A stretch of DNA of 64,000 nt from a virus (lineage: Duplodnaviria > Caudoviricetes): positions 1,619 through 65,618 of the IMG/VR virus record IMGVR_UViG_3300048670_001253; one strand, written 5' to 3'. The position numbers were made by a program, and so were the translations under genes. Below, piece by piece: positions 34,200 to 62,626 of this stretch. Under the pieces are notes generated by a model. It ran no database searches, was not told the origin of the DNA, and saw nothing but the letters and a program-made list of their open reading frames with translations. The stretch's first letter is position 1. Each line of letters opens with the position of its first letter.

Positions 34200-34297
34200 G
34201 TTATTTTTGCTCAACATTTTGTAGTTTTCAATATATACTATGTAAATAGCAATAAAATTGATTAAAATCACTAGCCATAAAGTAAAAAGGACAAAAA

Positions 34298-45699: not shown

Positions 45700-45720
45700 T
45701 ACTTCGGACCGTTCAATCTA

Positions 45721-45792: not shown

Positions 45793-45908
45793 CCACCATT
45801 CAAAAAAACGAAAAGGTGTTTCTATCGAATGGAAATTAAAAATGAAGGTTTTAGATTAGATCCAAAAACCAACGTCAGCCTCCGAAAACATATTATAGCA
45901 AACATTAA

Positions 45909-48354: not shown

Positions 48355-48699
48355 AAAACCCTATTAAACTTTCAAAAATTATACCCGCCGGATTTTTTTG
48401 AAAACCGTTTTTGAAAAGTTATAGGTTTATAGGGGTAGGTTTAAAGTTAATTAAGTATAACTTTGAAAAAAAATAGAAAGCCCACTAGAAGTTCGTTAAA
48501 AAGTTCATGGGCTTGGAAAAAAGAAATAAAAAGGAAAAGAAAAAGGGCGTAGTGGCGCTAAACCGGTACCCGTACCAGAGACCATACCCAGGTTTTTTCG
48601 GTTTTAGTTTTTCCGTTTTTAACTTTGTAAAAGTATACCGTACCTGAAACCATTTTGGTTTCTGAAAGTTAACCGTACTAGAAATGATCCACAAAACTA

Positions 48700-48880
48700 A
48701 ACGGGGGGAGTGTCAGTGGGGGGATATAAGAATCCCCGTGACCATTGGAGCCCCACCACTCAGGCCAGCCCCAGTCGGCGGGGTGCGAGCGGTCGCCTTG
48801 CGGCCCCACCGACACCTCCGGGTCACTACCCAGCATGGCATGATCGTCCCGGACTCGCAGCGCCCGGTTATAGGGATGTA
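48700..48880 (-). ncRNA. candidate GC-rich structured RNA
   Basis: 10-bp GTCGGTGGGG/CCCCGCCGAC stem (U-G wobble on the minus strand), GCAA tetraloop, GTGACC/GGTCAC stem; downstream of motif 48943; no convincing ORF. Confidence 0.45.
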
Positions 48881-49054
48881 AGGAACGATCAACCCTTGGG
48901 GACACGACGATGAGCAACTACTATCAGTCAGTGGATTCCTTAACCGTACCAGAGAACATAATGCGATGTTTATAATGGACTAATTATAATCTCTAGTACG
49001 GTTGGTGGAATTAAAACCGAAACCCTCCCCCGTAGGGGAGGGCCGGTCGATCAT

Positions 49055-49291
49055 TCACAGATGGTTAGCGTACTTGTAGTCAGTTCCATCTTTCGATACA
49101 ACGGCAAGACAATCGGTTGGAAAGTTCACAACAACTGGGATGCCGAAAATCTTGATAACAACCGGAGCAGTTCCGGGAATATTCTGGGCAGACGATCTGC
49201 CATTCGGGGCGACGTAGTCCATTCCCACAACAACGCCGGTAAAACCCTCAAACGTGCCTTCGACGATGCTAACAACGGTGCCGATGATCAT
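49055..49291 (-). CDS. stand-alone NusG/RfaH C-terminal KOW-like protein
   Basis: GTVVSIVEGTFEGFTGVV...VVIKIFG.P..V; GGAG RBS 8 nt upstream of ATG 49291. Confidence 0.7.
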   Translation of the reverse strand: MIIGTVVSIVEGTFEGFTGVVVGMDYVAPNGRSSAQNIPGTAPVVIKIFGIPVVVNFPTDCLAVVSKDGTDYKYANHL

Positions 49292-49398
49292 GGTATTCAC
49301 TCCGCAAGTGGTGGTTGGTGTTACATCCCTAAACCGTACTAGAGACGATAATAATCAACCCATTAGGGGGGAGAGTTTTACCCCTCCCCCCTTTCGGG

Positions 49399-49872
49399 CT
49401 AGACGATCTGCCATTCGCACGCCACCTTGCTTGCCCCCTTGCAAGCCTGCTTGGGAAGTTGCTTCACAAGCTCCCGCTTCACGCTCTCGACGCCCTGCTT
49501 GACCTCTGTGACACGATCAGCCACAGACCCTACCGCAGACTCCCCGGTGACCAGAGCCGTTCTAATGCAGTCTACGAGCACCCCAGTGGCAAGGGGGCCA
49601 GTCGAACGCATAGCGACCAGATCGGCACGGGTGATTGTCTCTCCCCGATCCATCCGGGCGATCAGACTATCGAACGCAGCCGATGCCGTTTCCTGCCACA
49701 GAGCCACCGACTCCAACCACGGGATTGACGTTGTGGCATCCCGCTCGTAATCGTCGCCCACCTTCACGGTGCCGACGCAGCGAACCGTGAAATCGACCGT
49801 ATGATCCCCGGCCGGGATCGAATCCCGATCAAACTTGACCTTGCTCAGAGCCAGCATTTGAATGTCGTTCAT
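49399..49872 (-). CDS. hypothetical early protein
   Basis: own motif (49914), GGAG RBS, GC-rich codons. Confidence 0.75.
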   Translation of the reverse strand: MNDIQMLALSKVKFDRDSIPAGDHTVDFTVRCVGTVKVGDDYERDATTSIPWLESVALWQETASAAFDSLIARMDRGETITRADLVAMRSTGPLATGVLVDCIRTALVTGESAVGSVADRVTEVKQGVESVKRELVKQLPKQACKGASKVACEWQIV

Positions 49873-49932
49873 GGTTTCCATCTCCAAGGGTTTATCGTTC
49901 CTTACAAACCAAAACCGTACTAGAGGCTATTC

Positions 49933-50049
49933 TTACTGGTCGAGCCAGCTATGAATTGCGTTTCCGATTTCATAGGTTGTATAGCTAATAAACCCGCAGA
50001 AACTTAGCAGCCCGGCAAGTACGATCCAATCGTTGAGGGTGAGAAGCAT
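49933..50049 (-). CDS. 38-aa single-TM early peptide (not in ORF track)
   Basis: MLLTLNDWIVLAGLLSFCGFISY...; own motif (50090), AAGG RBS. Confidence 0.55.
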   Translation of the reverse strand: MLLTLNDWIVLAGLLSFCGFISYTTYEIGNAIHSWLDQ

Positions 50050-50105
50050 AGTAATAGTACCTTGTGGGGTGTTAGGTTCACAACTTTCAACCGTACCAGA
50101 ATCAA

Positions 50106-50270
50106 TCAATCGTAGTAATAATCGTTTACTACCCTGTCAACAAACTTGAATGTCTGGCAGAATAGGAACCAACTAACCGCCGATACCACTGTCACAAATC
50201 CAAAAACTACCATTAGGTGGGCGAAAATGTTGAACACAAAGCTAAAATCAGAATTGTACCAAGGCATCAT
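50106..50270 (-). CDS. 54-aa membrane early peptide (not in ORF track)
   Basis: MMPWYNSDFSFVFNIFAHLMVVFGFVTVV...; own motif (50301), GGAG RBS. Confidence 0.55.
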   Translation of the reverse strand: MMPWYNSDFSFVFNIFAHLMVVFGFVTVVSAVSWFLFCQTFKFVDRVVNDYYYD

Positions 50271-50349
50271 AAGGCTCCAAGGTTAGGTTTACAGTTCACA
50301 ACCGTACCAGAAAGTAAGGGGGGAGTTTGTTGTCCTCCCCCCTTACTGT

Positions 50350-50595
50350 TTACTTCCACCGCTTCATTTCTTTGTTAGCAGCGGCGACGATTGCTGCCTT
50401 TTTCCGGCGACCCTTCAGCTCTGCTTTCGTCTTGGGAATGTTGCTGCCGTTCTGCCGGAGGTATTTCAACCGGAGGCAAACCGCTGCCGGAGTTACCCCC
50501 AACTCCCGTGCTACGCTGGTCTGATTGCCACCATTGCTGAGATTCCGCATCACAACATTGACGAACGTTTCAACACTGACAGTCTGCCGTTTCAT
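50350..50595 (-). CDS. small HTH protein, divergent paralog
   Basis: GGNQTSVARELGVTPAAVCLRLKYLRQNG; AAAGGA RBS; motif 50636 lies inside the longer ORF-track call. Confidence 0.8.
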   Translation of the reverse strand: MKRQTVSVETFVNVVMRNLSNGGNQTSVARELGVTPAAVCLRLKYLRQNGSNIPKTKAELKGRRKKAAIVAAANKEMKRWK

Positions 50596-50661
50596 GGTTT
50601 TTCCTTTATTGTTATTATTCGGGCCACAGTTTACTACCGTACTAAAATCAACCGTCACTTA

Positions 50662-50865
50662 TCACCACTCATTCTTCGATGGTAACCCGTATGCTTCCGG
50701 GTCAAGTTTGGGGCCAAGCCCATAAGTATCAATTACGGGGATACCGGCCGCTCGTCGTTGATAGACATTGACAGCGGCGCCGACCAAATCAACCGCTTCA
50801 CTCTCGCTGATCAGCCCCTTTGCGTAACTCTTGATCGCCAGTTCGATTTCAGTAATGATGCTCAT
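50662..50865 (-). CDS. hypothetical early protein
   Basis: motif 50911, AAGGA RBS. Confidence 0.65.
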   Translation of the reverse strand: MSIITEIELAIKSYAKGLISESEAVDLVGAAVNVYQRRAAGIPVIDTYGLGPKLDPEAYGLPSKNEW

Positions 50866-50938
50866 TTTCTTGTTCCTTACTGGTTTACCGGGTCGTTCCT
50901 ACAACTCTAAACCGTACTAAAGACTATCCATACTTGGG

Positions 50939-51151
50939 TCACACGACCCCCGCCAAGTATGTTTCATACTGAGCAAGCAAATCAATCTTTTTAGCCTTAG
51001 GCTTGATTCCGGCCTCTGCAAGGATGCCCTTCACAATCTTTGCGACGTTTACTTTACTGTGCTTCAGCCCCTTAGTTTCGAGCTTAAGAGCACTCTTAAG
51101 AGCAAGCAGACGATACTTCAGAACATTTTCGCCGGTGATAACGGTGCACAT
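50939..51151 (-). CDS. hypothetical basic early protein
   Basis: motif 51188, AAGGA RBS. Confidence 0.7.
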   Translation of the reverse strand: MCTVITGENVLKYRLLALKSALKLETKGLKHSKVNVAKIVKGILAEAGIKPKAKKIDLLAQYETYLAGVV

Positions 51152-51254
51152 TTTTTTGTTCCTTAGTGGTTGGTTCTACGGTTCATTACCGTACCAGAGA
51201 CTAAGATTATTATTATAATCTCTGGTACGGTTTATTGCAGTTTGGAAAAGAGAC

Positions 51255-51461
51255 CTAGCCACTTGGGCCTAGGTCATAGTAACAGGGGGATTGATTTTCC
51301 AGCCGCTCCTCCTCCTCAAAGTTTGCTAGGTCGCAATAGCGAGTTGCGTCCGCTACCTTTTCAAACTTGAGACCCGTGTGCAACAGGCCGTGATTGGTAG
51401 AGTAGATATTCCAAAACCCATTCTCGTCACGCAGGGTGTAGTATTCGTTTTTCGGCATCAT
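51255..51461 (-). CDS. hypothetical early protein
   Basis: motif 51495. Confidence 0.6.
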   Translation of the reverse strand: MMPKNEYYTLRDENGFWNIYSTNHGLLHTGLKFEKVADATRYCDLANFEEEERLENQSPCYYDLGPSG

Positions 51462-51516
51462 TCAGTCCCAGAGGTGTTGGTGTTACAACTCTAAACCGTA
51501 CTAAAGACTATCCCGT

Positions 51517-51551
51517 GAACACCCCCGCCTGTTAGTTTGGCGGGGGTGTTC
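51517..51551 (-). terminator. GC-rich hairpin between cassettes
   Basis: GAACACCCCCGCC / GGCGGGGGTGTTC 13-bp stem right after the stop of 51564-51968. Confidence 0.65.
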
Positions 51552-51563
51552 ATTCCGGGGGGT

Positions 51564-51968
51564 TTATTCAGAAGCTAATGCCATTTTAACGGCATTTACC
51601 ATCTGCCCATACAAACTACCGGCAAAGTTACCACCACACATTTCTGCCAATTCCCGCTGGAAAGCGTGAGGGGTCATTGATCCCTTGCGATTACCCTGCC
51701 GGAATACTTCCGCCTTTGCCTTTACCTTTACAAAATCTAGACGGTGGTTCTGACGCTCTACGGTGCGATCTGGGGCCGTTATGCTAAACGTGCCATTGCC
51801 CGCCCGGTTAGTATAAACCACCCGCCAAATCTGATCCTGCGAAGCCAGAGAGTGTCGGATGGTTCCCTTGACCATCAGACCGCCAACCCTACGGAAAGTT
51901 GTCCCTTCCTCCGTCTCGACCGGATAGAACTTGACGGGGGCGGGAGCATCAACGATTTGCCACGGCAT
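51564..51968 (-). CDS. hypothetical early protein
   Basis: motif 52005, AAGGA RBS. Confidence 0.7.
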   Translation of the reverse strand: MPWQIVDAPAPVKFYPVETEEGTTFRRVGGLMVKGTIRHSLASQDQIWRVVYTNRAGNGTFSITAPDRTVERQNHRLDFVKVKAKAEVFRQGNRKGSMTPHAFQRELAEMCGGNFAGSLYGQMVNAVKMALASE

Positions 51969-52032
51969 TGTAAGATTCCTTAGTGGTGTTGGTTACAACT
52001 CAAAACCGTACTAGAGACTATCCTTAGAAGAG

Positions 52033-52058
52033 AGCCCCTCCGTTTTACGGGAGGGGCT
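52033..52058 (-). terminator. hairpin nearly identical to the one at 56871
   Basis: AGCCCCTCCGTTTTACGGGAGGGGCT; GTAA (GNRA) loop on the minus strand. Confidence 0.65.
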
Positions 52059-52063
52059 AAGGA

Positions 52064-52264
52064 TCAACCCGTGATAATCCGCAGAACTTCAGCGTTGAGC
52101 GGATCACGGACAGGGTCGAATTCGACCGGAACTTCGACTTCCCGCTGATTGTGGATAATGTCCACAATCGCATCGACCAGAACCCGCTCACTCACCGTGA
52201 AATGGCCCCGGGCGTGAATCTCTGCGTCCCGCTTCATTTCACGCTCAATCTTTGCCTTGTTCAT
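52064..52264 (-). CDS. hypothetical early protein
   Basis: motif 52306, AAGGA RBS. Confidence 0.7.
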   Translation of the reverse strand: MNKAKIEREMKRDAEIHARGHFTVSERVLVDAIVDIIHNQREVEVPVEFDPVRDPLNAEVLRIITG

Positions 52265-52321
52265 CGTTCGTTCCTTAGAGAAGGGAGTTGAACCACTGAG
52301 ACAAAACCGTACTAGAGAAGA

Positions 52322-52388
52322 TCGACCGCTAGGGTTGAACCTAGTTAGCTAGGATTGAACCTAGTTGAATCCCCATCGGGACGGTCGA
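52322..52388 (-). ncRNA. cloverleaf-like four-way-junction element
   Basis: 7-bp TCGACCG/CGGTCGA closing stem plus three hairpins, two being CTAGG-TTCAAY-CCTAG. Confidence 0.5.
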
Positions 52389-52554
52389 AAGATTGTTTAG
52401 CGTCCAGTGTTATTATCAATAATAATAGTAAGAATTCCGCTGCACAATCCAAGGAAGCACATCATGTTGAATACTCAAGTAAAGGAAAGTTAGTAACAAG
52501 CTCCCGGCTTCGACCGGTAGCCTTGAACCGTACCCACGGGAAACCCCGTAGGGC

Positions 52555-52588
52555 TCACCCCCCGGCCTTGTTGTTGGCCGGGGGGTGA
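52555..52588 (-). terminator. GC-rich hairpin after HTH paralog 1
   Basis: TCACCCCCCGGCC / GGCCGGGGGGTGA. Confidence 0.65.
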
Positions 52589-52600
52589 ATCTTCCTTACT

Positions 52601-52855
52601 TCACTCAACACCCAGGCTGGCGAGAATCGCAGCCGCCCGCTCTGCCGTGTTGCTCGTCCGACCGCCGCCTGCGAACCGGGGAATGTCAATCCCGTGCTTC
52701 TTGCGAAGCTGGCTCAGACGCACACTCACCGAACCCGGAACGATACCCAACTCAGTCGCAACATCATCGACACTACCACCGGCCCGCTGCGTCTTGATAA
52801 CGCAGGTCAGGAACGTCTCAAGATCAACACCCTTTTGTCCAACTTGGCGACCCAT
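52601..52855 (-). CDS. 84-aa HTH protein, paralog 1
   Basis: GGSVDDVATELGIVPGSVSVRLSQLRKKHG; GGAG RBS; motif 52934. Confidence 0.85.
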   Translation of the reverse strand: MGRQVGQKGVDLETFLTCVIKTQRAGGSVDDVATELGIVPGSVSVRLSQLRKKHGIDIPRFAGGGRTSNTAERAAAILASLGVE

Positions 52856-52946
52856 AGTAATCATCTCCTGCTTATAGTAACTCAACCCTAGGTTCCCGCT
52901 TGCCGCATCGGCTTGCTGTCGGAACAAACCCAAACCGTACCAAACT

Positions 52947-53147
52947 CTATCCCTTATTATGACACCGGATACAATCCCTGCGGATCATATTTGATTTAAT
53001 ATCGGTGAAAAAACTTTCAATATCGAGGAAGTTCTTATAGGAACTATCTTCAGCGAACTTCTTCACAGCCTCGATTAGCTTATCGGTCGGCTTCACAGTC
53101 TCAGCAGTGTAATAACCTTCCAGAACGTCCATATACTCTTTATCCAT
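52947..53147 (-). CDS. hypothetical early protein
   Basis: motif 53183, AAGGA RBS. Confidence 0.65.
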   Translation of the reverse strand: MDKEYMDVLEGYYTAETVKPTDKLIEAVKKFAEDSSYKNFLDIESFFTDIKSNMIRRDCIRCHNKG

Positions 53148-53195
53148 CGCTGGTTCCTTTGGTGTTACTTGAACAGTTCACTACCGTACTAGAGA

Positions 53196-53504
53196 CTAAA
53201 TCAGGTTCCGGCCTTTCAACCATTCGTATACAGTACCAGCAGCATTGTTGATCTTGATACCATCAAGAAAACAATCATTGATAATACTGATCACAACCAC
53301 TCTATTTTGATTTATATCAGCGATACTATTGCTAGTTGGTTCTTCCCACCAGCTTCCAAGTTCACAGAATTCCAGTTGTAGATATTCCAGCACCTTTTCA
53401 CGATACTGGTTTCGATTCTCAACAAGATTCTTTTTATTCTTTACTTTACGATTCTTGTTTTCAAAGAAATCGCTATAAAATCCATCGTAGAAGTTATTGT
53501 TCAT
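53196..53504 (-). CDS. hypothetical early protein
   Basis: motif 53527, GGAG RBS. Confidence 0.7.
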   Translation of the reverse strand: MNNNFYDGFYSDFFENKNRKVKNKKNLVENRNQYREKVLEYLQLEFCELGSWWEEPTSNSIADINQNRVVVISIINDCFLDGIKINNAAGTVYEWLKGRNLI

Positions 53505-53543
53505 CGTGTTCTCCCTTTGATGTTCAACCGTACTAGAACTGAT

Positions 53544-53744
53544 TTACTTTTTACTACTGGGGAAGTCGAAGTATCCCACAAGCCATTCTTTTCCTTCATC
53601 ATCAATCATGATTCTAGGACGATCCCTATAGGCGTTATATAGGTTGATCAGCCTGTCAACCATCCAGCATCCACTAAGAATCAAGAGATACACACTAGCA
53701 ATTGTGCTAAGATACATTGCGACGATGAAAATCGTAGTAGTCAT
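53544..53744 (-). CDS. small membrane early protein
   Basis: motif 53781; N-terminal TM segment. Confidence 0.65.
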   Translation of the reverse strand: MTTTIFIVAMYLSTIASVYLLILSGCWMVDRLINLYNAYRDRPRIMIDDEGKEWLVGYFDFPSSKK

Positions 53745-53793
53745 TTCTGTTTCCTGTTTTGGTGAATCTCACAACCCTTTACCGTACCAAAGA

Positions 53794-53976
53794 CTACATA
53801 TTGATCATCTGCCGGAGTTCATTATCAATGCTATGATTCTTTTCCATAGTTTCGATAATACTATTCAGTGTTTCACTAATAGTATTAAGGATCATATCGC
53901 CGTCGCCTTCCACATTACTATTGTCCACAAAATTCTGGAGCATCTTCAGGTTTTCAATTGTGTCCATTCTTTTCAT
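53794..53976 (-). CDS. hypothetical coiled-coil protein
   Basis: GAGG RBS; downstream of motif 54101. Confidence 0.55.
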   Translation of the reverse strand: MKRMDTIENLKMLQNFVDNSNVEGDGDMILNTISETLNSIIETMEKNHSIDNELRQMINM

Positions 53977-54294
53977 CCTCTTTGTTTTTTACAGGGAAAA
54001 CTAAATCACAAACAAACCAAGCACAGGCCATACCAACAGCCATGCCAATTAGAAAACTATTCCAATCCATATAAAGATCGAGCATCCTTGCCCCTTTCAT
54101 ACCGTACTAGAATTTATCAAAAGCGTCCCAGAATCCAACTTTATTGCCGTTAGAATCTCTAAGATTACCATCATCCCCAGGTTTAATATCAACTGGGATT
54201 TGATTTAGAACAACACGCAGTTCATTAGGGTTATCCTTGAAACTTGCGTTATCCATGTTTACTTCAACAACGATTTTCATAATTTGTTCCCGTA

Positions 54295-54519
54295 CTAGAA
54301 GGGATAATCCTCCGGCTGTTCCTGACTCTTGCTGTAATCTTCCTGCTGGTCGATATAGTTGTTTAGTTCCTGATCCTCGACCAATTCAACATATCGACTA
54401 CGTTCACAAACGATATTACGCTTCTTGAGAATCTTATAGATGATTCTTTCGGCGTTTGTAAGGTCAGCGATGCTGATACCGATGATAGCCCGTGCGATTT
54501 GTTCCAGTTCGGTGTTCAT
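54295..54519 (-). CDS. hypothetical early protein
   Basis: motif 54555, GGAG RBS. Confidence 0.65.
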   Translation of the reverse strand: MNTELEQIARAIIGISIADLTNAERIIYKILKKRNIVCERSRYVELVEDQELNNYIDQQEDYSKSQEQPEDYPF

Positions 54520-54567
54520 CGTTTTGCTCCGTGGTGTTGATCCTACAACTCAAAACCGTACCTGAGT

Positions 54568-54909
54568 CTATCGCACCATTACCGGCGCTTGGCAGATATG
54601 GATATTTGGGGGAATTGGTTGATCGGGGATATTTGGGTTCTTGCTATATTCAACAATCCCCTGCCGATCCATCCTACACCAATATGTTCCAGACGGATCA
54701 CTCCAATACTGGTAACTATTATCAAATCCCCTATACACGATATATTGCGGATCATTTTGATGCTTTCTTGCTTCCACAATATTGTGAACAACTGGGGCGG
54801 CTTCCTTACCGCACTGCAAACAAGCAACAATCAATCCGACAACTAAACTGGCAATTTGAAGATACAACATTTTTCCAATCCTTTGAATAATGTTTCGGGC
54901 TACAGGCAT
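54568..54909 (-). CDS. hypothetical exported protein (start probably downstream of 54909)
   Basis: hydrophobic segment IASLVVGLIVAC; motif 54912. Confidence 0.55.
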   Translation of the reverse strand: MPVARNIIQRIGKMLYLQIASLVVGLIVACLQCGKEAAPVVHNIVEARKHQNDPQYIVYRGFDNSYQYWSDPSGTYWCRMDRQGIVEYSKNPNIPDQPIPPNIHICQAPVMVR

Positions 54910-54917
54910 CTACCGTA

Positions 54918-55187
54918 CTAGACTTCATCCTCATCATCCCGGTCGCCAAGTTCACCATCATCATCCCAATCATCCTCTTCTTCCTCATCATCGTCATAAT
55001 CAGCATCATCATAATACTCGCCATCCTCATCACTATTCAGGCAAGCATCGCAGATGCTATACCGATTGGTGACGGGAAGGCGCTTGCCACAGGTGCAAAC
55101 CATATCCAACTGGTTTCCACTCTCATCGAACCGGGGGCAGCAACCCGGTTCATGGCCGCAACACGGGAAATCTTGGCAGTAAACCAT
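54918..55187 (-). CDS. Cys-rich (Zn-binding) protein with highly acidic tail
   Basis: CQDFPCCGHEPGCC, CTCG, CDAC, then an Asp/Glu run; GAGGAG RBS; motif 55228. Confidence 0.75.
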   Translation of the reverse strand: MVYCQDFPCCGHEPGCCPRFDESGNQLDMVCTCGKRLPVTNRYSICDACLNSDEDGEYYDDADYDDDEEEEDDWDDDGELGDRDDEDEV

Positions 55188-55293
55188 GACTGTTCTCCTC
55201 TTGAGTATTGGATCGGAACAACTCACTACCGTACCTGAGACAATCTTGTGGAAAATTATGTGAAGATTTACCCGGACTATACTATATAAGAGT

Positions 55294-55740
55294 ATGGATA
55301 AATTTCAAATAGGTTATTTGGCTGGAATAATAGATGGTGAAGGTTGTGTATATGTAAACAAAAGGAAACCTCACGGAAGAAGAAAAACTTTTGGATATGG
55401 TGTGAAAGTAGTTGTATCAATAACATCCTATAGTCTCGTGGAATGGTTTGTTACTAATGCAAGACTCACATCTATTCATCACAGATTACCAGAAGGTAAT
55501 CGTAAACCTCAATGGATGTGCACTTGGAATAATTCAAATGCAGAATGGATTTTAAATACTGTTCTTCCTCACTTGGTAATAAAAAAAGAGCAAGCAAAGA
55601 TAGGTTTAGAATTACTCGTTCATATGAGAACAACGCCTGTAGTAAGAGGGCAGTGTATATCCCCTGAAATTATCTCTTATAGAGATTCCATGAAAGATAA
55701 GATATCTTTACTAAATCGTCGTGGTAAACAAACTGACTAG
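55294..55740 (+). CDS. LAGLIDADG homing endonuclease (single motif, free-standing)
   Basis: YLAGIIDGEGCV, VLPHLVIKKEQA. Confidence 0.92.
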   Translation: MDKFQIGYLAGIIDGEGCVYVNKRKPHGRRKTFGYGVKVVVSITSYSLVEWFVTNARLTSIHHRLPEGNRKPQWMCTWNNSNAEWILNTVLPHLVIKKEQAKIGLELLVHMRTTPVVRGQCISPEIISYRDSMKDKISLLNRRGKQTD

Positions 55741-55940
55741 AAATCATCCCCACCGAAATAACCGTAATCTTCATCCAAACCAAATCCACAACTACGAAAC
55801 GTATCTGCGTCTGCTTCAACGTCAGTCATATTTTCCTCAAAATCATCCTCATCCTTATCACACTGAGAATCTATCTCGTGTTCTGCATCGGGATGATATG
55901 AGCAAGAATCTTCATCGGGAAAAACATCGTCTGGGTTCAT
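55737..55940 (-). CDS. very acidic small protein
   Basis: Asp/Glu-rich; AAGGA RBS; motif 55965. Confidence 0.7.
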   Translation of the reverse strand: MNPDDVFPDEDSCSYHPDAEHEIDSQCDKDEDDFEENMTDVEADADTFRSCGFGLDEDYGYFGGDDF

Positions 55941-56011
55941 GGTGTTTCCTTTGGTTAATTCACAACCGTACCAGAAAGAATATTGTATACCGGTTGTAAA
56001 TGGATCGACTT

Positions 56012-56068
56012 ATGATGATATGGGAATCGCACCCATACGTCGCTAGGACGTGCTTGTTTTTATCACCA
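56012..56068 (-). ncRNA. D-arm-less tRNA-like element
   Basis: TGGTGAT/ATCATCA 7-bp stem, ACGTC-CTAGC-GACGT hairpin, ATGGG-TGCGATT-CCCAT T-like arm. Confidence 0.4.
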
Positions 56069-56158
56069 CGATAGTTTTACGATAAGTGTCCGGTATTACG
56101 CACATTACCAACCACAAGTTACCCTGTGGCATCTATCCGACCCCTGACGCATTTATAT

Positions 56159-56294
56159 TGGCCCCGTGCTGGGAATCCAACCCAGAAGGAGAGCAGCATA
56201 AGCCTTCCCATAGCCAGGGTTGGCAACCTCGTACACCCATTAGATGCTGCGGCTGTTTGCTGGGCTATCTCTCCTTTGTCGGCAGACACACAGG
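56159..56294 (-). ncRNA. atypical tRNA-like RNA ending G-CCA with an enlarged anticodon arm
   Basis: CCTGTG/CACGGG acceptor-like stem, CTGGG-TTGGATT-CCCAG T-arm, ATAGC/GCTAT stem enclosing about 49 nt; motif 56313 just upstream. Confidence 0.45.
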
Positions 56295-56324
56295 ATGTTT
56301 CGTTGAATCCACACCGTACCAGAG

Positions 56325-56603
56325 TCAATCGTTTTCGTATATCCCTTTAGTATATTCTTTTGGAATTATTGGACACCAGCCTTTAGCCTTTTCAGCATCA
56401 TATGGTATCCAGAATGGAGCATCACAAGCATCTACTACTCCAAACTTATTATTCACAAAGATATGAGGACATAGTTTAGTCCCATTTACTTCACGTTCTT
56501 CGTAATGGTATTTACCAATACCTATTCCGATGTTATGTCCAAAGTAATAAACTTCCTGATCCTTTTCTGGAGGGAAGTTATGACTGCTTTTCCAAATGTT
56601 CAT
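56325..56603 (-). CDS. hypothetical (DUF551-like) leaderless early protein
   Basis: ATG 8 nt after TACGGT; W.....PPE N-terminus. Confidence 0.7.
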   Translation of the reverse strand: MNIWKSSHNFPPEKDQEVYYFGHNIGIGIGKYHYEEREVNGTKLCPHIFVNNKFGVVDACDAPFWIPYDAEKAKGWCPIIPKEYTKGIYEND

Positions 56604-56609
56604 ATTGTT

Positions 56610-56822
56610 TTACCGTACTGAATACAAAAAGCCGATTGTTTCTCTGTCCCAGCTTTTTCCTTTTAATTCTCTGATGTAATCTTCTGCCGCTTCTTTATTC
56701 GTATATTTAATTACGAATGGCTGTTTATAAACATCGCCTTTATTCGTCAATGGTTTACGATCCCTATAGATCACAAAATAACCATCCTCTTCTTTCACAG
56801 AATAGTCGCAGGTTCGTTTCAT
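56610..56822 (-). CDS. hypothetical leaderless early protein
   Basis: ATG 7 nt after TACGGT, no RBS. Confidence 0.7.
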   Translation of the reverse strand: MKRTCDYSVKEEDGYFVIYRDRKPLTNKGDVYKQPFVIKYTNKEAAEDYIRELKGKSWDRETIGFLYSVR

Positions 56823-56859
56823 AGTATTTACCGTACTAGATACTATACCACATTACAAA

Positions 56860-56896
56860 TAAAAAATAAACCCCCTCCGTTTTACGGGAGGGGGTT
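56860..56896 (-). terminator. intrinsic terminator after HTH paralog 2
   Basis: CCCCCTCCCGTAAAACGGAGGGGG followed by TTTATTTTTT on the minus strand. Confidence 0.85.
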
Positions 56897-56927
56897 CGTA
56901 TGGCCGATTATTTAATCAGCCTTAACT

Positions 56928-57182
56928 TCACTCAACACCCAGGCTGGCGAGGATAGCCGCCGCCCGCTCTGCGGTGTTGCTGGTGCGGCCCGACCCCTCG
57001 AAGCGGGGGACGTTCGCACCATGCTTCTTGCGAAGCTGCGAGAGACGCACCGACACGCTGCCCGCCGTGATGCCCAGAGCATCGGCCACATCCTGCACCG
57101 ACCCACCAGCCCGCTGCGTCTCAACGACACAGGTAAGGAAACGCTCCAAATCGACACCCTTCTGTCCAACTGCACGACCCAT
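56928..57182 (-). CDS. 84-aa HTH protein, paralog 2
   Basis: 14 aa differences from paralog 1; AGGAG RBS; motif 57256. Confidence 0.85.
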   Translation of the reverse strand: MGRAVGQKGVDLERFLTCVVETQRAGGSVQDVADALGITAGSVSVRLSQLRKKHGANVPRFEGSGRTSNTAERAAAILASLGVE

Positions 57183-57306
57183 AATAATTAAACTCCTACT
57201 TTATACAACCCTTGTTGCCGTTTGCCGCACTGGCTCACCGTCGCAACATCCATCAACCGTACCAAAGAGCAAGTTACTCTGTTTTATTCCCTTTAGTTTC
57301 GAATAT

Positions 57307-57687
57307 TCATGGTTTATCGTCTCTAGTAAATGTATCCAACATTATATTCCTTAGCTCATTTGAAACTTCTTTAAGTTCCCTTTGTATTTCCTTCTTCCTT
57401 CTTGAAAGTTTTTCAACCTTCTCAGCTTTCAACTTCTTCACATTATTATCATACTTACTAATACACTTTTCCACAAGAATTAGCATACTTGGGCCTGTAT
57501 CAGAGCAGACTTCACCATATTCAAAATCTTTAAGTGTTACCCTATAACCACTCACATGATTAGTGATAACTACCTGTCTTGATAAACCTTCATTTAAAAA
57601 GGCTTTCATATTATTCGTATACTCGGTCAACGCACCAGTCTTTCCCGATCCCGAAAATGCCTTTATGAAAGTCTTTGTATTATTCAT
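57307..57687 (-). CDS. hypothetical protein
   Basis: 126-aa ORF, ATGA-coupled to the upstream ORF. Confidence 0.65.
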   Translation of the reverse strand: MNNTKTFIKAFSGSGKTGALTEYTNNMKAFLNEGLSRQVVITNHVSGYRVTLKDFEYGEVCSDTGPSMLILVEKCISKYDNNVKKLKAEKVEKLSRRKKEIQRELKEVSNELRNIMLDTFTRDDKP

Positions 57688-57860
57688 AGATTATCCAAAA
57701 GTTCTTCAAACTCATCTGGATCGCAATCAAATGAGTTATGGGTGTTTCGCTGGATTTCAATCTGTCGCACAATCCAGTCGATTTGATGGCGATCAATACT
57801 GTCGAAATAACCCCGATCCTGAATTTCCTTATTCTTTTCCATCTGCTTCTTGACGCTCAT
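57684..57860 (-). CDS. 58-aa hypothetical protein (not in ORF track)
   Basis: MSVKKQMEKNKEIQDRGYFD...; GGAG RBS; motif 57897. Confidence 0.55.
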   Translation of the reverse strand: MSVKKQMEKNKEIQDRGYFDSIDRHQIDWIVRQIEIQRNTHNSFDCDPDEFEELLDNL

Positions 57861-57913
57861 TATAAGCTCCCCGGAGGTTAGTTGCTTCTGTGCAAAACCG
57901 TACTAGAGAAGAA

Positions 57914-57994
57914 GTAAGGTGCTTCCCATTTTGACAACCAATCACTTTGATTGGTGGAGCTTTGGTATGGCCCACTTGCTGGGAAGCACCTTAC
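57914..57994 (-). ncRNA. candidate small RNA with its own promoter
   Basis: perfect 15-bp GTAAGGTGCTTCCCA/TGGGAAGCACCTTAC stem, internal ACCAATCA/TGATTGGT hairpin; begins 8 nt after motif 58003. Confidence 0.65.
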
Positions 57995-58173
57995 AACTAT
58001 CAACCGTACCAGAGACGATCAGGATTAAACTTCTTCCTTAACTGTTTCCATAACAATTAATTCTTCACTATAAGGAAGATTATCCAGAAAGTTATGTAAT
58101 GTTTCTGGAGTGTTATATGGGCCGTATTTAATTTGCCCTTGTTCATAATAAATGTGAACGTAAAACATTACTA

Positions 58174-58374
58174 TTATTTAGCACTTCTGTATTCAACTTG
58201 AATAGTAGAATTTCTACTAGCCATCTTCACAAAATTTGAAACACTATCCCAATCTGGACTAGAGTCGATATACAACTCTTTATTATCGTTTAACAAATAT
58301 ATTTCAAAACCACCTGATGGATACTCACCATCAACAAATGGTTTCTTTGTATTCACTACAACGTATTGTTTCAA
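58174..58374 (-). CDS. hypothetical protein
   Basis: overlaps the upstream stop (GTGA). Confidence 0.55.
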   Translation of the reverse strand: MKQYVVVNTKKPFVDGEYPSGGFEIYLLNDNKELYIDSSPDWDSVSNFVKMASRNSTIQVEYRSAK

Positions 58375-58610
58375 CGGTATGAATCCACAGGGTTATGGTG
58401 AATATAGAATGCACGGTGCCTAATATAAGATTCTGAGGCGTGTCTTAAAGTAGTTTCCGCCCGGAGCTGATTAGCATAGGAAGGATCGCTAGTATACTTA
58501 TCGGCCGCTTCCTTAAATTCACTCACATTTTCAAGATAGGTTTGATAATACATCTCGCTAAGACGCTCAAGAGTCTCAATATCCAGTCCGCTCGCAGTTG
58601 TGTCGCTCAT
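58371..58610 (-). CDS. hypothetical early protein
   Basis: motif 58646. Confidence 0.65.
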   Translation of the reverse strand: MSDTTASGLDIETLERLSEMYYQTYLENVSEFKEAADKYTSDPSYANQLRAETTLRHASESYIRHRAFYIHHNPVDSYR

Positions 58611-58669
58611 CTTTTTACCCTTTGGTGTTGGTGTTACGAAACGAAACCGTACCAGAGACTATCCCGATT

Positions 58670-59023
58670 CTATTCGAAACTCTTCAATAGGACTACGTTT
58701 GGAAGACTATTCCAAATATTGCTGGGGTATTCGCAACTATTGTTTAATATGGGTTCACCACTAATATACCAGACGAAATCTTTCTGGTATAGAATTCGTG
58801 CTTCACAAAATTTACGAAGGATACTATTCAATCTGCTCTTAGTGGTGCTTGTGGAGTATCCCTGATTATTGATCCTTACAGTCTGATCAGTAATCTCAGC
58901 AATATGGTGACCGAATAAAAATACATCAATCACATCCCCATTTACTTCAACCTTAGTATTGCTGCAAGAATAATTCTTTTTATTCAAGATTGCATGGATC
59001 ATACCTTGTTCAATCTTACGCAT
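58670..59023 (-). CDS. conserved phage early hypothetical protein
   Basis: MRKIEQ.M..AI, TSTTKSRLNSIL, YQKDFVWY; GGAG RBS; motif 59058. Confidence 0.75.
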   Translation of the reverse strand: MRKIEQGMIHAILNKKNYSCSNTKVEVNGDVIDVFLFGHHIAEITDQTVRINNQGYSTSTTKSRLNSILRKFCEARILYQKDFVWYISGEPILNNSCEYPSNIWNSLPNVVLLKSFE

Positions 59024-59170
59024 CTTTTTCTCCAAGAGAAGGTCGGGACAAACCACAACCGTACCAGAGACTAAATCATTTCTCTCTCAAAAATATTTTC
59101 CCAGTTTATAATAGTATATACCTATAGATTAACAATGACGTTAATCATGTTTTTTTAAAAGGAGTTTATT

Positions 59171-59623
59171 ATGAGTGCAACAACAACAGAAGGCACAGGT
59201 TTAGGAATGGCCCCTAACCAAGTATCTTTAACAGTAGCTGGCCCACATATCGTAGCCGCCGGAACAGTTAGAACGGGACAGCCAGGAGCAGACGGACAAT
59301 CTAATGACTGGTGGATTACAGTCGATCTAGATCAAGTATTACCTTTAAGCCCAAGTAATTATGCCGTAATGATTACACAAAGTGACGAATCAGGTCATTT
59401 AGGTGGCCCAGATGGTCAGAGATCAAACAACCCACCACATATCGAGAAATTCGTTAAGGTTAACGGGGATCGTTATAACTACTGGGGTATTGATGATGAG
59501 TTCGAAAGCTATGCTAATTGGAACAACAATGGTTTAGCTGGTTTCGTTGTCCACTGCGGACACCCTGACCCAAAGACTATTGATTATGTTGTCGTAAGAA
59601 CCGGTTTTTTAAGAACTAACTGA
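59171..59623 (+). CDS. hypothetical protein, late-type transcription unit embedded in the early array
   Basis: AAGGAG RBS, upstream TATAAT/TATATA, own terminator. Confidence 0.8.
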   Translation: MSATTTEGTGLGMAPNQVSLTVAGPHIVAAGTVRTGQPGADGQSNDWWITVDLDQVLPLSPSNYAVMITQSDESGHLGGPDGQRSNNPPHIEKFVKVNGDRYNYWGIDDEFESYANWNNNGLAGFVVHCGHPDPKTIDYVVVRTGFLRTN

Positions 59624-59649
59624 ATTTAACTAAAAACACTTTTGGTGTT

Positions 59650-59681
59650 AACCCCAAGACTAACCCTCTTGGGGTTTTTTA
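59650..59681 (+). terminator. intrinsic terminator
   Basis: AACCCCAAGA/TCTTGGGGTT stem plus T-tract. Confidence 0.85.
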
Positions 59682-59821
59682 TTATACCTTCCTGATTATC
59701 CTATCGTATTCTTCTATCAACTCCAAAGCAGAGATATTATATTCTTCTGCGTAGTCCCTTGCTTTATCCTTGTTTGGACTCAGCATACTCATTGGAGAAT
59801 TTAAAGTTTTAAGAATAAACC

Positions 59822-60052
59822 TTATACTTTGTTCTTTTGAGAGATCTGCCAATTTTTATGCTCCACAACTACGTCAATGTTATTACGAAGAAGATTATCA
59901 GGCGCAGTATCACAATACAAACTAATCATCTCAAGAATATCATCAAGACTATTCCTAAGAAGATTATCATTGGTTAAACTCTTTGAATAAGAAAGTTTAG
60001 CAGCAATCTTACAAAAGAGTAGTGCATCTTCCTTGTCCATAGAGCCTACCAT
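59822..60052 (-). CDS. hypothetical protein
   Basis: downstream of the HTH gene in the same unit. Confidence 0.55.
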   Translation of the reverse strand: MVGSMDKEDALLFCKIAAKLSYSKSLTNDNLLRNSLDDILEMISLYCDTAPDNLLRNNIDVVVEHKNWQISQKNKV

Positions 60053-60267
60053 TGTGGCACCTTTGCTCCCTTAGCACGAAGTTTATGGCACCGCTGCCTT
60101 ACTGCTTGAGGACTAATCCCCAATTCATTTGCAACGCTAATACTGTTTCCACCGTTCTTAACGGCTTCCACAATAGCTTTAAGAAAAACATCAAGACTGA
60201 TTCTTTTGTTCTTCTTAGGAAGATCGTCGTTATCGTCGTCATCAAAACTGAGTTCAATATCAAACAT
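60046..60267 (-). CDS. small HTH protein, divergent paralog with acidic N-terminus
   Basis: ISLDVFLKAIV...GGNSISVANELGISPQAVRQRCHKLRAKG; GGAG RBS; motif 60297. Confidence 0.75.
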   Translation of the reverse strand: MFDIELSFDDDDNDDLPKKNKRISLDVFLKAIVEAVKNGGNSISVANELGISPQAVRQRCHKLRAKGAKVPQW

Positions 60268-60313
60268 CTATTCTTTCTCCGTGGTGACAACCCAACACCG
60301 TACCAGAGACGAT

Positions 60314-60514
60314 TCAAAGACTGGAAGTTTCCTCGTCCCTTTGCTCTACCGGACTTTGCCACTCATCTTTTAACTGCCCATAGTATAACTTTTCAATCCA
60401 TACTTCTGGGCCATGTTTATTTCTGGCAAATTTAACAGCATCCCATTCACTATATGCTGATACATAGTCAGCTATACGATTATTCTTCCAAACCCGCCAA
60501 GTATGTTTTTCCAT
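60314..60514 (-). CDS. hypothetical protein
   Basis: TATAAT just upstream. Confidence 0.55.
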   Translation of the reverse strand: MEKHTWRVWKNNRIADYVSAYSEWDAVKFARNKHGPEVWIEKLYYGQLKDEWQSPVEQRDEETSSL

Positions 60515-60553
60515 TCCCCTATTATAATTTAATCTGGGGTTATTGTCAAGGAT

Positions 60554-60748
60554 TTAATGTCCACTAACAATATCTTTTATAGCGGCGCTACACTCTTGAA
60601 TGTTAAATCCATTATCCCATGCTTCGAATACTGTACTCTCAATAACTTCGTTATCCCAATATATTTCGTATTCATAATATTCAAGATCATAATACTCTTT
60701 TACTCGAGCATAATAATCAGTGAATTCTTTTTTACTTCGCATCGTCAT
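60554..60748 (-). CDS. hypothetical protein
   Basis: coupled ORF. Confidence 0.5.
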   Translation of the reverse strand: MTMRSKKEFTDYYARVKEYYDLEYYEYEIYWDNEVIESTVFEAWDNGFNIQECSAAIKDIVSGH

Positions 60749-60945
60749 ATGCGTTTTCGTGTGTAGAAAGCGTGCTCTTTGGCTGAGTCCCTACGTTCTA
60801 GCATACTATCTGCCATAGAGTAAGCAATCACACTAATCTCATCAATCTCAAAGGCTTGAGATTGTGCAGTCATAATAGCCTGCATGGCTAGTCCGGCAAA
60901 ATAATCTCTGAGACTAATGTGACTATTATCTTTATCTTGTAACAT
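60745..60945 (-). CDS. conserved phage hypothetical protein (LRDYFA motif)
   Basis: ISLRDYFAGLAMQA...AYSMADSML. Confidence 0.75.
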   Translation of the reverse strand: MLQDKDNSHISLRDYFAGLAMQAIMTAQSQAFEIDEISVIAYSMADSMLERRDSAKEHAFYTRKRI

Positions 60946-61320
60946 TTAGACTCCACTCTTAAGAGCCCGATTAGTAGCAATCTTCACACCAAGTTTACGA
61001 TTAAACATTCCACCACTAGGAACATTAAACTTACCCCTCAGATCACGACCATCAGGAGTAGTAATCTCCACAAGTGTAAAGCCACCTTTGCAACTAAGTT
61101 CCCAAATTCCCAGGCGAACATTATTGTATTGTTCATATTCACGCTTGCTCATGATCTCATGAACAATCTCTGGGAAGTTAAGAGTGTTATTATAAACCCG
61201 TCCGTGATAAACACGAACCTTATAACCAGTCTTACGAAGAACTTCTACGTTTGGCATTTCAATTTTATTCATAGTGGTCATTGGTGTGTTCCTATATTTA
61301 CCAAGGGCGGGCTGGATCAC
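60946..61320 (-). CDS. hypothetical protein (start probably about 61280)
   Basis: GYKVRVYH, KGGFT.VEI, FNRKLGVKIA. Confidence 0.65.
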   Translation of the reverse strand: MIQPALGKYRNTPMTTMNKIEMPNVEVLRKTGYKVRVYHGRVYNNTLNFPEIVHEIMSKREYEQYNNVRLGIWELSCKGGFTLVEITTPDGRDLRGKFNVPSGGMFNRKLGVKIATNRALKSGV

Positions 61321-61483
61321 GACGATGTTTCTTTTTCTTATTCATCACAGAGTTTACAATATTGGTTTTAACCTTATTGAACTCTTTGATTGCTTCTGGA
61401 AGTTTCTCTTCAAACTTTGAAATCACAAAGTCTTTTTTATTATTAAGCCAACTCTTATTAAACCAGTCAGGCAACGGATTCAT
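61298..61483 (-). CDS. hypothetical protein
   Basis: TAATG coupling to the upstream ORF. Confidence 0.5.
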   Translation of the reverse strand: MNPLPDWFNKSWLNNKKDFVISKFEEKLPEAIKEFNKVKTNIVNSVMNKKKKHRRDPARPW

Positions 61484-61806
61484 TATAGATCCCTCTTTCT
61501 ATTTACATCAGTAACAGTGTGATTATACTCTATTCCAGATTCTCTGCAATAACGGCTGACATAATAATAACTGGTCAAACGATCAAGAAAACCATTATCA
61601 ACAAGCCACTTACTGGCATTGTATTCCCATTGATCCCCATACCCATAAGTAAAAGGAATCTTATGAACCATACGGTCGTTCACCCAGATTTCACAAGTAT
61701 GGTAGGTATTACCATAGCTACGTTGAAACCAGCGACGAGCAAGAAGATAGATCGTCTTAACTTCAACAAAACTGGTCAGGAGTTTTTCTTTTGTGATTGT
61801 TTCCAT
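61483..61806 (-). CDS. hypothetical leaderless early protein
   Basis: ATG 8 nt after TACGGT (61815); RWFQRSYGNTYH, YGYGDQW. Confidence 0.75.
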   Translation of the reverse strand: METITKEKLLTSFVEVKTIYLLARRWFQRSYGNTYHTCEIWVNDRMVHKIPFTYGYGDQWEYNASKWLVDNGFLDRLTSYYYVSRYCRESGIEYNHTVTDVNRKRDL

Positions 61807-61830
61807 GACTGTTCACCGTACCAAAGGGAA

Positions 61831-62115
61831 TGCGGCCTCCGGGAATCGAACCCGGAACCTAGAGGTTAACGTACTACTTCAGTTTTCACTGCCCTTGCGG
61901 TTTGTAGTCTGGACTTTACCTTCACCATTGTTTTTCAACTTTAGGTGCTGCCCGTCAAGTCTCTACACCTTCCTAAAATTAAAAAATAATCTTAGGCTTG
62001 GCTCGGTATTAGCAGTTAAGCCTTCACCGAATTTGAGCAGTTCTACTCCAAAAGTTTCCTTTTAGGCACTCTTAATTTCAAAAGCCCCTTGCTCTACCAA
62101 TTGAGCTAAAGCCGC
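61831..62115 (-). tRNA. tRNA-Lys(UUU) split by a group I intron (exon 1 62115-62082, exon 2 61869-61831); CCA not encoded
   Basis: spliced 73-nt cloverleaf GCGGCTT...AGGGG-CT-TTT-AA-CCTCT...CCGGG-TTCGATT-CCCGG-AGGCCGC-A. Confidence 0.92.
61870..62081 (-). ncRNA. ORF-less group I self-splicing intron, 212 nt, between anticodon positions 34 and 35
   Basis: P1 with U34-G wobble (CTT|TT pairs with AAGAG); core elements AAATTCGGTGAA, GCTAATACCGAG, GTAGAGACTTGACG, AAGGTAAAGTCC; terminal omega-G at 61870. Confidence 0.9.
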
Positions 62116-62203
62116 AACTAAAACACAACCGTACCAAAAACAAAACAACCCGTCAACCCCCTCCCCTCCCCACATTAAAGGGGAGGGGAGAAGATTAAAC
62201 AGA

Positions 62204-62458
62204 TCACTCAACCCCAAGAGAGGCGAGGATAGCAGCGGCCCGCTCCGCAGTATTACTAACCCGGCCCGAACCCTCAAAGCGAGGGATATTCAGACCATGC
62301 TTCTTGCGAAGCTGTGAGAGACGAACCGACACCGAACCGGGAACAATTCCCAGAGCATCGGCAACATCCTGCACACTACCACCAGCCCGCTGCGTCTCAA
62401 TGACACAGGTGAGAAACTTCTCAAGAGAAACACCGGCCTGTCCAACTGCACGACCCAT
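62204..62458 (-). CDS. 84-aa HTH protein, paralog 3
   Basis: 9 aa differences from paralog 2; AGGAG RBS; motif 62526. Confidence 0.85.
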   Translation of the reverse strand: MGRAVGQAGVSLEKFLTCVIETQRAGGSVQDVADALGIVPGSVSVRLSQLRKKHGLNIPRFEGSGRVSNTAERAAAILASLGVE

Positions 62459-62626
62459 AATAATTAAACTCCTGCTTTAAACAACCCTGACTTCCCGACT
62501 CACGTTGAATCGGGCTTAACCCTAAACCGTACCAGAGAGAAACATCAACCTGCGAAACTCTGATTAACTACTTTGAACTTCCTTTTTTAACTTCGTCCGA
62601 AGTTACATGAATTAAACCAACTTTGG

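Follow-up and report, generated by a model that had tools for sequence, protein, structure and literature searches.

A tRNA-Leu(UAA)-type group I intron in a tRNA-Lys(UUU) gene of a huge phage

The closest described relatives of the element reported here are the group I introns of tRNA-Leu(UAA) genes in cyanobacteria and plastids, which follow U34 of a C32-U33-U34 loop, use an internal guide GAG that forms a U-G wobble where splicing occurs, and have a compact core of about 200 nt without an open reading frame (ORF). We analyzed a 64,000-nt stretch of viral DNA (the window; positions 1,619 to 65,618 of IMG/VR virus record IMGVR_UViG_3300048670_001253) and find that its tRNA-Lys(UUU) gene is split by an intron with these same features. 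The host differs, being Lys(UUU), with a guide UUAA for U35 U36 in place of the (A)UU that serves A35 A36 in tRNA-Leu(UAA). The setting differs as well, a huge phage instead of a cyanobacterium or plastid. The Azoarcus intron is presumably similar in being a small IC3 intron that lacks P5abc, has GAAA loops on P2 and P9, and carries a bulged base in P7; it is inserted after U36 (class Ile2.5Ug), whereas the window intron follows U34.

Bacterial tRNA group I introns were raised from four classical classes to 21 in a survey of bacterial and archaeal assemblies whose available text names neither Lys nor phages (Williams 2020, bioRxiv 10.1101/2020.01.27.920355). The four classes named in that text agree with the host tRNAs listed as best known in a first, sequence-only reading of the window (Leu(UAA), fMet, Arg(CCU), and Ile(CAU)). 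As far as the available text describes them, the introns of the survey sit at U(-1)/G sites in anticodon loops, as the window intron does, and the window case differs in being on a phage. All phage introns known by 2014 sat in protein genes (Hausner et al. 2014 review). The record analyzed here is a virus contig of 65,618 nt that CheckV estimates to be about 14% complete, a fragment of a phage of about 0.45-0.5 Mb. We consider it likely that this phage has a functional tRNA-Lys(UUU) carrying a mobile, ORF-less IC3-type intron between U34 and U35, and that the intron is a selfish element.

Gene structure, splice junction, and fold

At its 34/35 site the tRNA-Lys(UUU) gene is interrupted by a group I intron that belongs to the tRNA-Leu(UAA) type, which confirms the observation made from the sequence alone. 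The complete gene lies at 61831..62115 (minus strand, as for every window feature in this section), with G1 at 62115, A73 at 61831, and no encoded CCA. Exon 1 (34 nt, 62082..62115) comprises the acceptor 5′ strand, the D arm, the anticodon-stem 5′ strand AGGGG, and C32 U33 U34. Exon 2 (39 nt, 61831..61869) comprises U35 U36 A37 A38, the stem 3′ strand CCUCU, a 5-nt variable loop, the T arm, the acceptor 3′ strand, and A73. ARAGORN reads the joined exons as tRNA-Lys(ttt) with a normal cloverleaf, in which the anticodon loop CUUUUAA sits on a 5-bp stem with one G-U pair (the predicted G29-U41 wobble) and the insertion falls between positions 34 and 35. Because the intron sits in a class I tRNA whose anticodon is UUU, and not in tRNA-Leu(UAA), we file it as a Lys-retargeted relative, not as a member of Leu.3Ug.

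The intron itself (212 nt, 61870..62081) contains no ORF of useful length and no homing endonuclease gene of its own. It is assigned to the tRNA-Leu(UAA)/IC3 type based on Rfam RF00028, covariation, and identity to relatives. RF00028 (Intron_gpI) matches 62091..61894 over the full model (1-253) with 53.4 bits (E 9.5e-11), above the gathering score of 50 bits; a search of the whole record agrees, and this is the sole Rfam intron match in the 64 kb. In its default mode ARAGORN missed the split gene when run on the window. In intron mode it proposed a 213-nt intron at 39/40, which we rejected, as the stem is a poorer one of 4 bp and relatives were mislabelled Tyr(AUA), SeC, and others. These sites were replaced by ones set from the rule of a U at -1 and a terminal G, together with a 7-nt loop.

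An uninterrupted allele of the gene is present at the same locus in a related phage. We compared the window phage (G000) with three related contigs, G001 (251 kb), G002 (323 kb), and G003 (187.6 kb), of which G001 and G002 were found by using the 107-aa ORF just downstream of the window tRNA as a synteny anchor. This ORF (61483..61806) belongs to the next cassette and has no Pfam match; its counterparts lie directly downstream of tRNA-Lys genes, with amino acid identities of 83% in G001 (L128) and 69% in G002 (L129). The tRNA-Lys(UUU) of G002 (L129 2905-2977) has no intron and is 72/73 identical to the joined window exons, the sole difference being a U/C in the D-loop. It has the G29-U41 wobble too, and its locus shares with the window the upstream C-rich hairpin, the GTACGGT motif, and the downstream ORF. 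The flanks of the two loci are 75-78% identical, and we count the near identity of the exons against this background in favor of a functional gene.

There are three placements of a 212-nt deletion that regenerate the G002 allele, and just one has a U at -1 and a G at the intron end (CUU|UUAA). This sole placement gives the ligated junction that had been predicted, GGGGCTT|TTAACCTCT. The intronless allele and the joined-exon cloverleaf agree exactly with the gene coordinates and intron limits of the sequence-only reading. The junction was located by exact deletion scanning, since MAFFT misplaced the gap in the intron-plus/intron-minus pair. A search for the window helicase in G001-G003 gave no match, and the kinship of these fragments is therefore based on the syntenic cassette, their common motif, and their sets of tRNAs; a capsid-like window ORF likewise had no match in the phage collection. 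The sole match to exon 1 in an exact scan of the viral contigs was a tRNA-Lys from a tRNA array (L126) that has no intron and is unrelated.

We drew a P1-P9 helix model from the window sequence and counted its pairs on an alignment of 61 distinct relatives. Paired cells amount to 96.0%, versus 79.1% in shuffled alignments (0/500 shuffles reach the observed value), and fall to 27-41% when partners are slid by 1-3 columns. Double-sided, compensatory changes occur in 34/54 pairs; taking the model from one alignment row inflates the paired measure and not these changes. Chance resemblance is excluded by the pairing relative to the shuffled and slid controls.

The splice-site helix and the catalytic core are complete. 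The internal guide GAG (62069..62071, from the cmscan alignment) pairs with C32-U33-U34 in P1, and U34 (62082) forms the splice-site wobble with the G at 62071; the three P1 exon pairs are 99.5% paired in the relatives, with the U-G wobble in 58/61. The adjoining P10 guide segment UUAA (62072..62075) is complementary to U35 U36 A37 A38 of exon 2. P2 (62048..62065) is a 7-bp hairpin with a GAAA loop and compensatory changes in 7/7 pairs, and the P3 5′ strand (62035..62040, partner 61953-61948) is 100% paired, with 5/6 pairs compensatory. In the P4-P5-P6 domain (61968..62031), P4 is 99.5% paired, P5 and P6 covary, and the P6a hairpin of 10 bp is 12 nt longer than in the closest relative (L165); across the relatives P4, P6, and P8 are 91-100% paired. 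The P7 5′ strand GAGACU (61958..61963), with the bulged A and the guanosine-binding site, pairs with AGUCC (61915-61911) in a pseudoknot with P3, and 5/5 of its pairs are invariant among the relatives.

P8 (61923..61947) has an inner GAAA-capped stem and an outer helix that is 99.6% paired with 2 covarying pairs. The helix model ends in a three-way junction (61873..61908) of P9 (98% paired), P9a with a GCAA loop, and P9b with a GAAA loop (100% paired, 4/4 pairs covarying), followed by the omega G (61870..61870), the last intron base, which is conserved across the family. The P1 wobble, core elements, and omega G noticed from the sequence alone are all present. GAAA loops occur at L2, L8a, and L9b and there is no P5abc extension, which we take to be the IC3 layout. 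The window intron carries all of the family-invariant positions (46/46).

Guide retuning and apparent movement among tRNA hosts

Across the Leu, Lys, Arg, Gln, and Glu hosts, the guide bases on the 5′ side of GAG change in step with anticodon positions 35-36. Leu introns (47/50 cases) have UU or UUU for an exon 2 that starts with AAAA. For the UUAA start of Lys exons, introns of the window lineage have UUAA and those of other lineages have UAG. Arg introns have UAG for CUAA, Gln introns CUG for UGGA, and Glu introns GG for UCAA. Such covariation between intron and exon speaks for selection on the introns to splice. All invaded tRNAs have U34 because GAG pairs with C32-U33-U34 in P1, and nucleases are not needed to account for this preference. 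In a separate viral lineage (L057, L066, L074, and L075) the tRNA-Arg(UCU) is split after U33, and a guide GGG pairs with C-C-U.

The presence of introns is patchy among the four related phages in the DNA examined. An intron interrupts the Lys(UUU) gene of G000 and that of G003; in G001 and G002 the gene is intact. Gln(UUG) is intact in G000, split in G001 and G003, and not seen in G002, and Arg(UCU) is split in G001 and G002, intact in G003, and not seen in G000. A split Leu(UAA) is seen in G001 and not in the other three; a split, class-I-sized tRNA(UAA) is seen in G003 and not in the other three. Met/Ile(CAU), not seen in G000, is split after U36 in G001, G002, and G003 by a separate, long-branched intron. 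The intronless tRNA-Gln(UUG) of the window (45636-45708) lies beside a tRNA-Thr(UGU), and its counterparts beside tRNA-Thr in G001 (L137) and G003 (L308) are split after U34.

A long variable arm is normal in bacterial tRNA-Leu. A tRNA with anticodon UAA and a Leu-type intron that has a short, class I variable loop occurs on at least 16 viral contigs (L015, L026, L037, L054, L059, L081, L092, L094, L095, L100, L107, L116, L117, L120, L121, and L125) and in G003 (L307 1477-1750). The same G003 sequence has a putative tmRNA called by ARAGORN (L307 1796-2157).

The Lys intron of G003 (L165) is 96.5% identical to the window intron over 200 nt, and the two share the UUAA|GAG guide. It interrupts a different tRNA-Lys gene, one that has other flanks and exons that are 49/72 (68%) identical to those of the window. 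The next nearest intron is that of the G001 tRNA-Leu(UAA) (L142; 92.0% identical in pairwise comparison, 87.6% in the multiple alignment). The window intron also has 74.8% identity over 203 nt to the LR756501 tRNA-Leu intron.

In trees, the window intron is nested among Leu introns. A careful maximum likelihood (ML) tree places it as sister to the L165 Lys intron (99/97), and the pair falls inside a clade (90/98) that holds only introns of G000-G003 and one viral contig (L040), with Leu, Lys, Gln, Arg, Glu, and class-I UAA hosts. The other Lys introns lie elsewhere, in a viral clade nested in Leu introns (100/99) and in a bacterial clade (100/99), and Lys introns are monophyletic in 0/200 bootstrap trees. 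The approximately unbiased test rejected a single clade for five viral Lys introns (p 0.022) and did not reject it once a long-branched row was removed (p 0.13). As this result hinges on one row, independent origins of the Lys introns rest on the careful ML tree, which has more rows.

An intron that is more alike than its exons, patchy in presence, and found repeatedly to have colonized one tRNA species behaves like a mobile element. The comparisons indicate that a Lys-adapted intron appears to have moved recently between unrelated tRNA-Lys genes. Candidate helpers are encoded beside tRNA-Lys genes of the related phages. Between its split tRNA-Lys and its split tRNA(UAA), G003 encodes a predicted free-standing PD-(D/E)XK endonuclease (L307 1052-1465; PF11645, E 9e-17) whose nearest solved chain, weakly, is 2OST (E 0.0026), which we take to be I-Ssp6803I, the homing endonuclease of a tRNA-fMet intron. 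This arrangement resembles that of I-Ssp6803I from the Synechocystis tRNA-fMet intron and collaborative homing in that a PF11645 endonuclease lies beside split tRNAs and the introns are ORF-less. It differs in that the G003 gene is free-standing, is absent from the window, and matches 2OST only weakly. At the G001 locus, a different intronless tRNA-Lys(UUU) is followed by a convergent gene on the opposite strand that overlaps the 3′ end of the tRNA. This 203-aa HNH ORF (L128 2341-2952, minus; PF13391, E 1.2e-9) has a C-terminal helix-turn-helix and lies between the tRNA-Lys and the conserved downstream ORF.

Split tRNA-Lys(UUU) genes are not confined to these phages. A scan of IMG/VR with an 18-nt core motif found at least 120 contigs, and among the matches listed with mapped splice sites most hosts are tRNA-Leu(UAA), with Lys(UUU), Arg(UCU), Glu(UUC), and Ser(UGA) also present. 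The 3′ junction pattern of Lys introns occurs on 51 viral contigs and 118 contigs of bacterial genomes (species representatives). Under strict verification (a 5-bp stem, U33, and ARAGORN on the spliced form), 72 split tRNA-Lys(UUU) genes remain, 23 on viral and 49 on bacterial contigs. The bacterial cases include 35 in Actinomycetota (Microbacterium 10, Tsukamurella 5), six in Poribacteria, and four in Gemmatimonadota. Some split tRNA-Lys(UUU) genes have introns of 660-940 nt (L149, L173, L182, L186, L216, and L281), which leaves room for an endonuclease ORF.

The sequence-only reading had called tRNA-Lys(UUU) an uncommon host, a view that does not hold given these 72 genes and the expansion to 21 bacterial classes by 2020 (Williams 2020). 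Lys(UUU) is an under-described host, not a rare one: the class of intron is known, and the Lys host and phage setting are poorly documented. Our literature search found no paper on group I introns of tRNA-Lys genes in phages or in Microbacterium, and introns are unmentioned in the huge-phage paper. The 22-49 nt "group I introns" of cyanobacterial tRNA-Lys(CUU) (PMC5733544) are too short for group I and were discounted as a precedent.

Expression, codon supply, and the nuclease question

The tRNA gene appears to lie in an array of early-gene cassettes (48637-62532, minus) with a G+C content of 37-48%, compared with about 33% elsewhere in the window. A GTACGGT motif (62128..62134, minus) lies 12 nt upstream of tRNA position 1 and looks like a promoter-type signal of the early cassettes; there are 41 copies in the window versus 2.1 expected, 34 of them on the minus strand within the last 14 kb. 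G001 and G002 have this signal in common with the window, and it precedes the intronless allele in L129. Upstream, the preceding cassette is closed by a terminator-like G+C-rich hairpin (62153..62198, minus) that is kept in L128 and L129. Elsewhere in G002, ARAGORN calls an unusual tRNA-Ser with anticodon ACU (A34; L129 4824-4912) that may be a mis-call. On four viral contigs (L131 3293-3360, L132 3296-3363, L133 976-1043, and L136 3266-3332), distant homologues of ORF 61483-61806 have matches to the type II hammerhead ribozyme immediately downstream, with 54-59 bits (gathering score 37).

Codon supply would be the simplest role for this tRNA-Lys(UUU). Within the AT-rich ORFs at 1-48 kb, AAA is the commonest codon (55.6 per 1000 codons) and makes up 72% of Lys codons, whereas its share is 45% in the early cassettes, which are richer in G+C. 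The other two tRNAs of the window, Gln(UUG) and Thr(UGU), also read A-ending codons. The phage encodes a predicted CCA-adding enzyme (32964-34271, minus), annotated from matches to PF01743 and to the PHROG tRNA nucleotidyltransferase, which is relevant because a tRNA gene without CCA needs one. The PolyA_pol head domain (PF01743) occurs in two ORFs of the window, this one and 2234-3421, both on the minus strand, which gives the fragment two predicted genes of the CCA-adding/nucleotidyltransferase type.

In the pathway we propose, the precursor would be transcribed from its own early-cassette promoter. C32-U33-U34 would pair with the guide GAG in P1, with the U34-G wobble at the splice site, and a free guanosine would attack after U34. 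The guide UUAA would then hold U35 U36 A37 A38 of exon 2 in P10, the terminal G (61870) would occupy the P7 site, and exon ligation would follow, as in the standard group I pathway. RNase P and the phage CCA-adding enzyme would finish the tRNA, and the product would decode AAA. The intron clade appears to have spread through Leu, Gln, Arg, Glu, and Lys tRNA genes in related huge phages as 2-4 of its guide bases were retuned. The recent movement of its Lys-adapted form was probably aided in trans by free-standing endonucleases encoded beside tRNA genes, or took place via reverse splicing.

The same tRNA species is a target of host defense. AriB of the PARIS system cleaves the tRNA-Lys(UUU) of E. 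coli at the 40/41 site (U36AAUC|A41), and the tRNA-Lys of phage T5 escapes through changes at positions 39 and 41 (PMC11464382, PMC12409363). The mature window tRNA reads U36AACC|U41, as does the G002 allele, so that like the T5 tRNA its stem 3′ strand differs from the AriB site at 39 and 41. The T5 tRNA-Lys differs in that it has no intron and escapes by base substitutions (PMC11464382, PMC12409363). Because the changes at 39 and 41 and the G29-U41 pair are present in the intronless allele as well, they are features that the tRNA has independently of the intron, and the mature tRNA could possibly be a nuclease-escape variant in its own right. The tRNA-Thr(UGU) of the window (45720-45793) has U36-A-A-U-C-A41, the AriB motif of E. 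coli tRNA-Lys and tRNA-Thr, with one anticodon-stem mismatch.

Alternative explanations and significance

The sequence-only reading had suggested that the unspliced precursor is a reservoir that anticodon nucleases (PrrC, AriB-like enzymes) cannot cut, with splicing supplying fresh tRNA-Lys. It is true that tRNA-Lys(UUU) is a proven nuclease target, that phage tRNA-Lys variants rescue infection, that the gene sits in the early region of a phage with its own CCA-adding enzyme, and that the mature tRNA departs from the AriB site. We nonetheless give this idea very little weight, as the sister phage keeps the 72/73-identical tRNA at the same locus without the intron, and the Lys gene is intronless in both G001 and G002. 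The clade is patchy across Leu, Gln, Arg, Glu, and Lys tRNAs, with no consistent link to nuclease-target tRNAs; pairing in P1 accounts for the bias toward U34 tRNAs, and once spliced the tRNA is as exposed as any other. The substitutions at 39 and 41 and the wobble belong to the tRNA, and the tRNA-Thr(UGU) keeps the susceptible motif. We know of no regulated group I splicing of the reservoir kind. A protective role at the level of DNA is somewhat better placed, although still improbable: free-standing endonucleases of related phages would cut intronless tRNA-Lys genes at the anticodon region, and the intron allele would be immune and copied in, as in collaborative homing. The PF11645 gene of G003, which lies beside the near-identical Lys intron, the HNH gene of G001 that overlaps an intronless tRNA-Lys, and an intron that is 96.5% identical between phages when the exons are 68% identical are what such a process might leave. 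Neither kind of endonuclease adjoins the window tRNA, however, and the targets of these nucleases are putative. A long co-conversion tract is lacking, since on both sides of the intron the exons of G000 and G003 diverge after about 6 nt.

It might also be argued that the intron no longer splices and that the gene is a dead tRNA pseudogene, given an Rfam score barely over the cut-off. This is hard to reconcile with the full set of invariant positions, the intactness of all modelled helices, and the fit of the guide GAG and a 4-bp P10 to the Lys exons; exons that match an intact allele at 72/73 positions despite flanks of 75-78%, and a 96.5%-identical copy kept in another phage, make decay very unlikely. 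That the record is a metagenomic contig raises the question of an assembly chimera or a chance resemblance, which we regard as next to impossible. The exon-intron-exon layout recurs on independent contigs (for Lys alone, the 23 viral and 49 bacterial ones), the split gene exceeds the intronless allele by an insert of exactly 212 nt, and the Rfam E value is 9.5e-11.

Several points also weigh against our preferred reading of a functional tRNA-Lys(UUU) with a mobile, selfish intron. We infer splicing of the window precursor from sequence only, the Rfam score exceeds the cut-off by just 3.4 bits, and P1 has just three exon pairs, as in other tRNA introns. That the intron is neutral for the phage is an assumption. 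No endonuclease gene adjoins the window tRNA and PF11645 is absent from the 65 kb of this phage, with 86% of the phage genome lying outside the analyzed fragment. Neither the donor of the intron nor the direction of the change (gain in the window phage versus loss in G002) can be fixed from these sequences.

Beyond this, we tentatively suggest, as a possible and not a probable extension, that the ORF-less IC3 introns of this group of huge phages are retargetable elements that switch host tRNA (from Leu to Lys, Gln, Arg, or Glu) through changes in just the 2-4 guide bases of P10 and keep GAG, are moved between phages in trans by free-standing PD-(D/E)XK or HNH endonucleases whose genes adjoin tRNA genes, and protect the tRNA gene in co-infection. 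If this were true, the window, the intronless sister allele, and the 96.5%-identical copy in an unrelated tRNA-Lys gene would capture such a transfer almost in the act.

The finding does not reveal a new mechanism of defense or counter-defense. What it adds is the allele pair, the retuned guide, and a case of apparent recent horizontal movement. Group I introns occur in at least six tRNA species of huge phages, compared with the protein-gene-only picture of the 2014 review. Because split tRNA genes of this kind escape standard finders, phage tRNA inventories, now read as anti-defense repertoires, are undercounted. The locus is a natural experiment, with intron-plus and intron-minus alleles, a near-identical intron in another tRNA-Lys gene, and retuning of the guide, and it makes the movement and retargeting of ORF-less group I introns, a question of long standing, directly testable.

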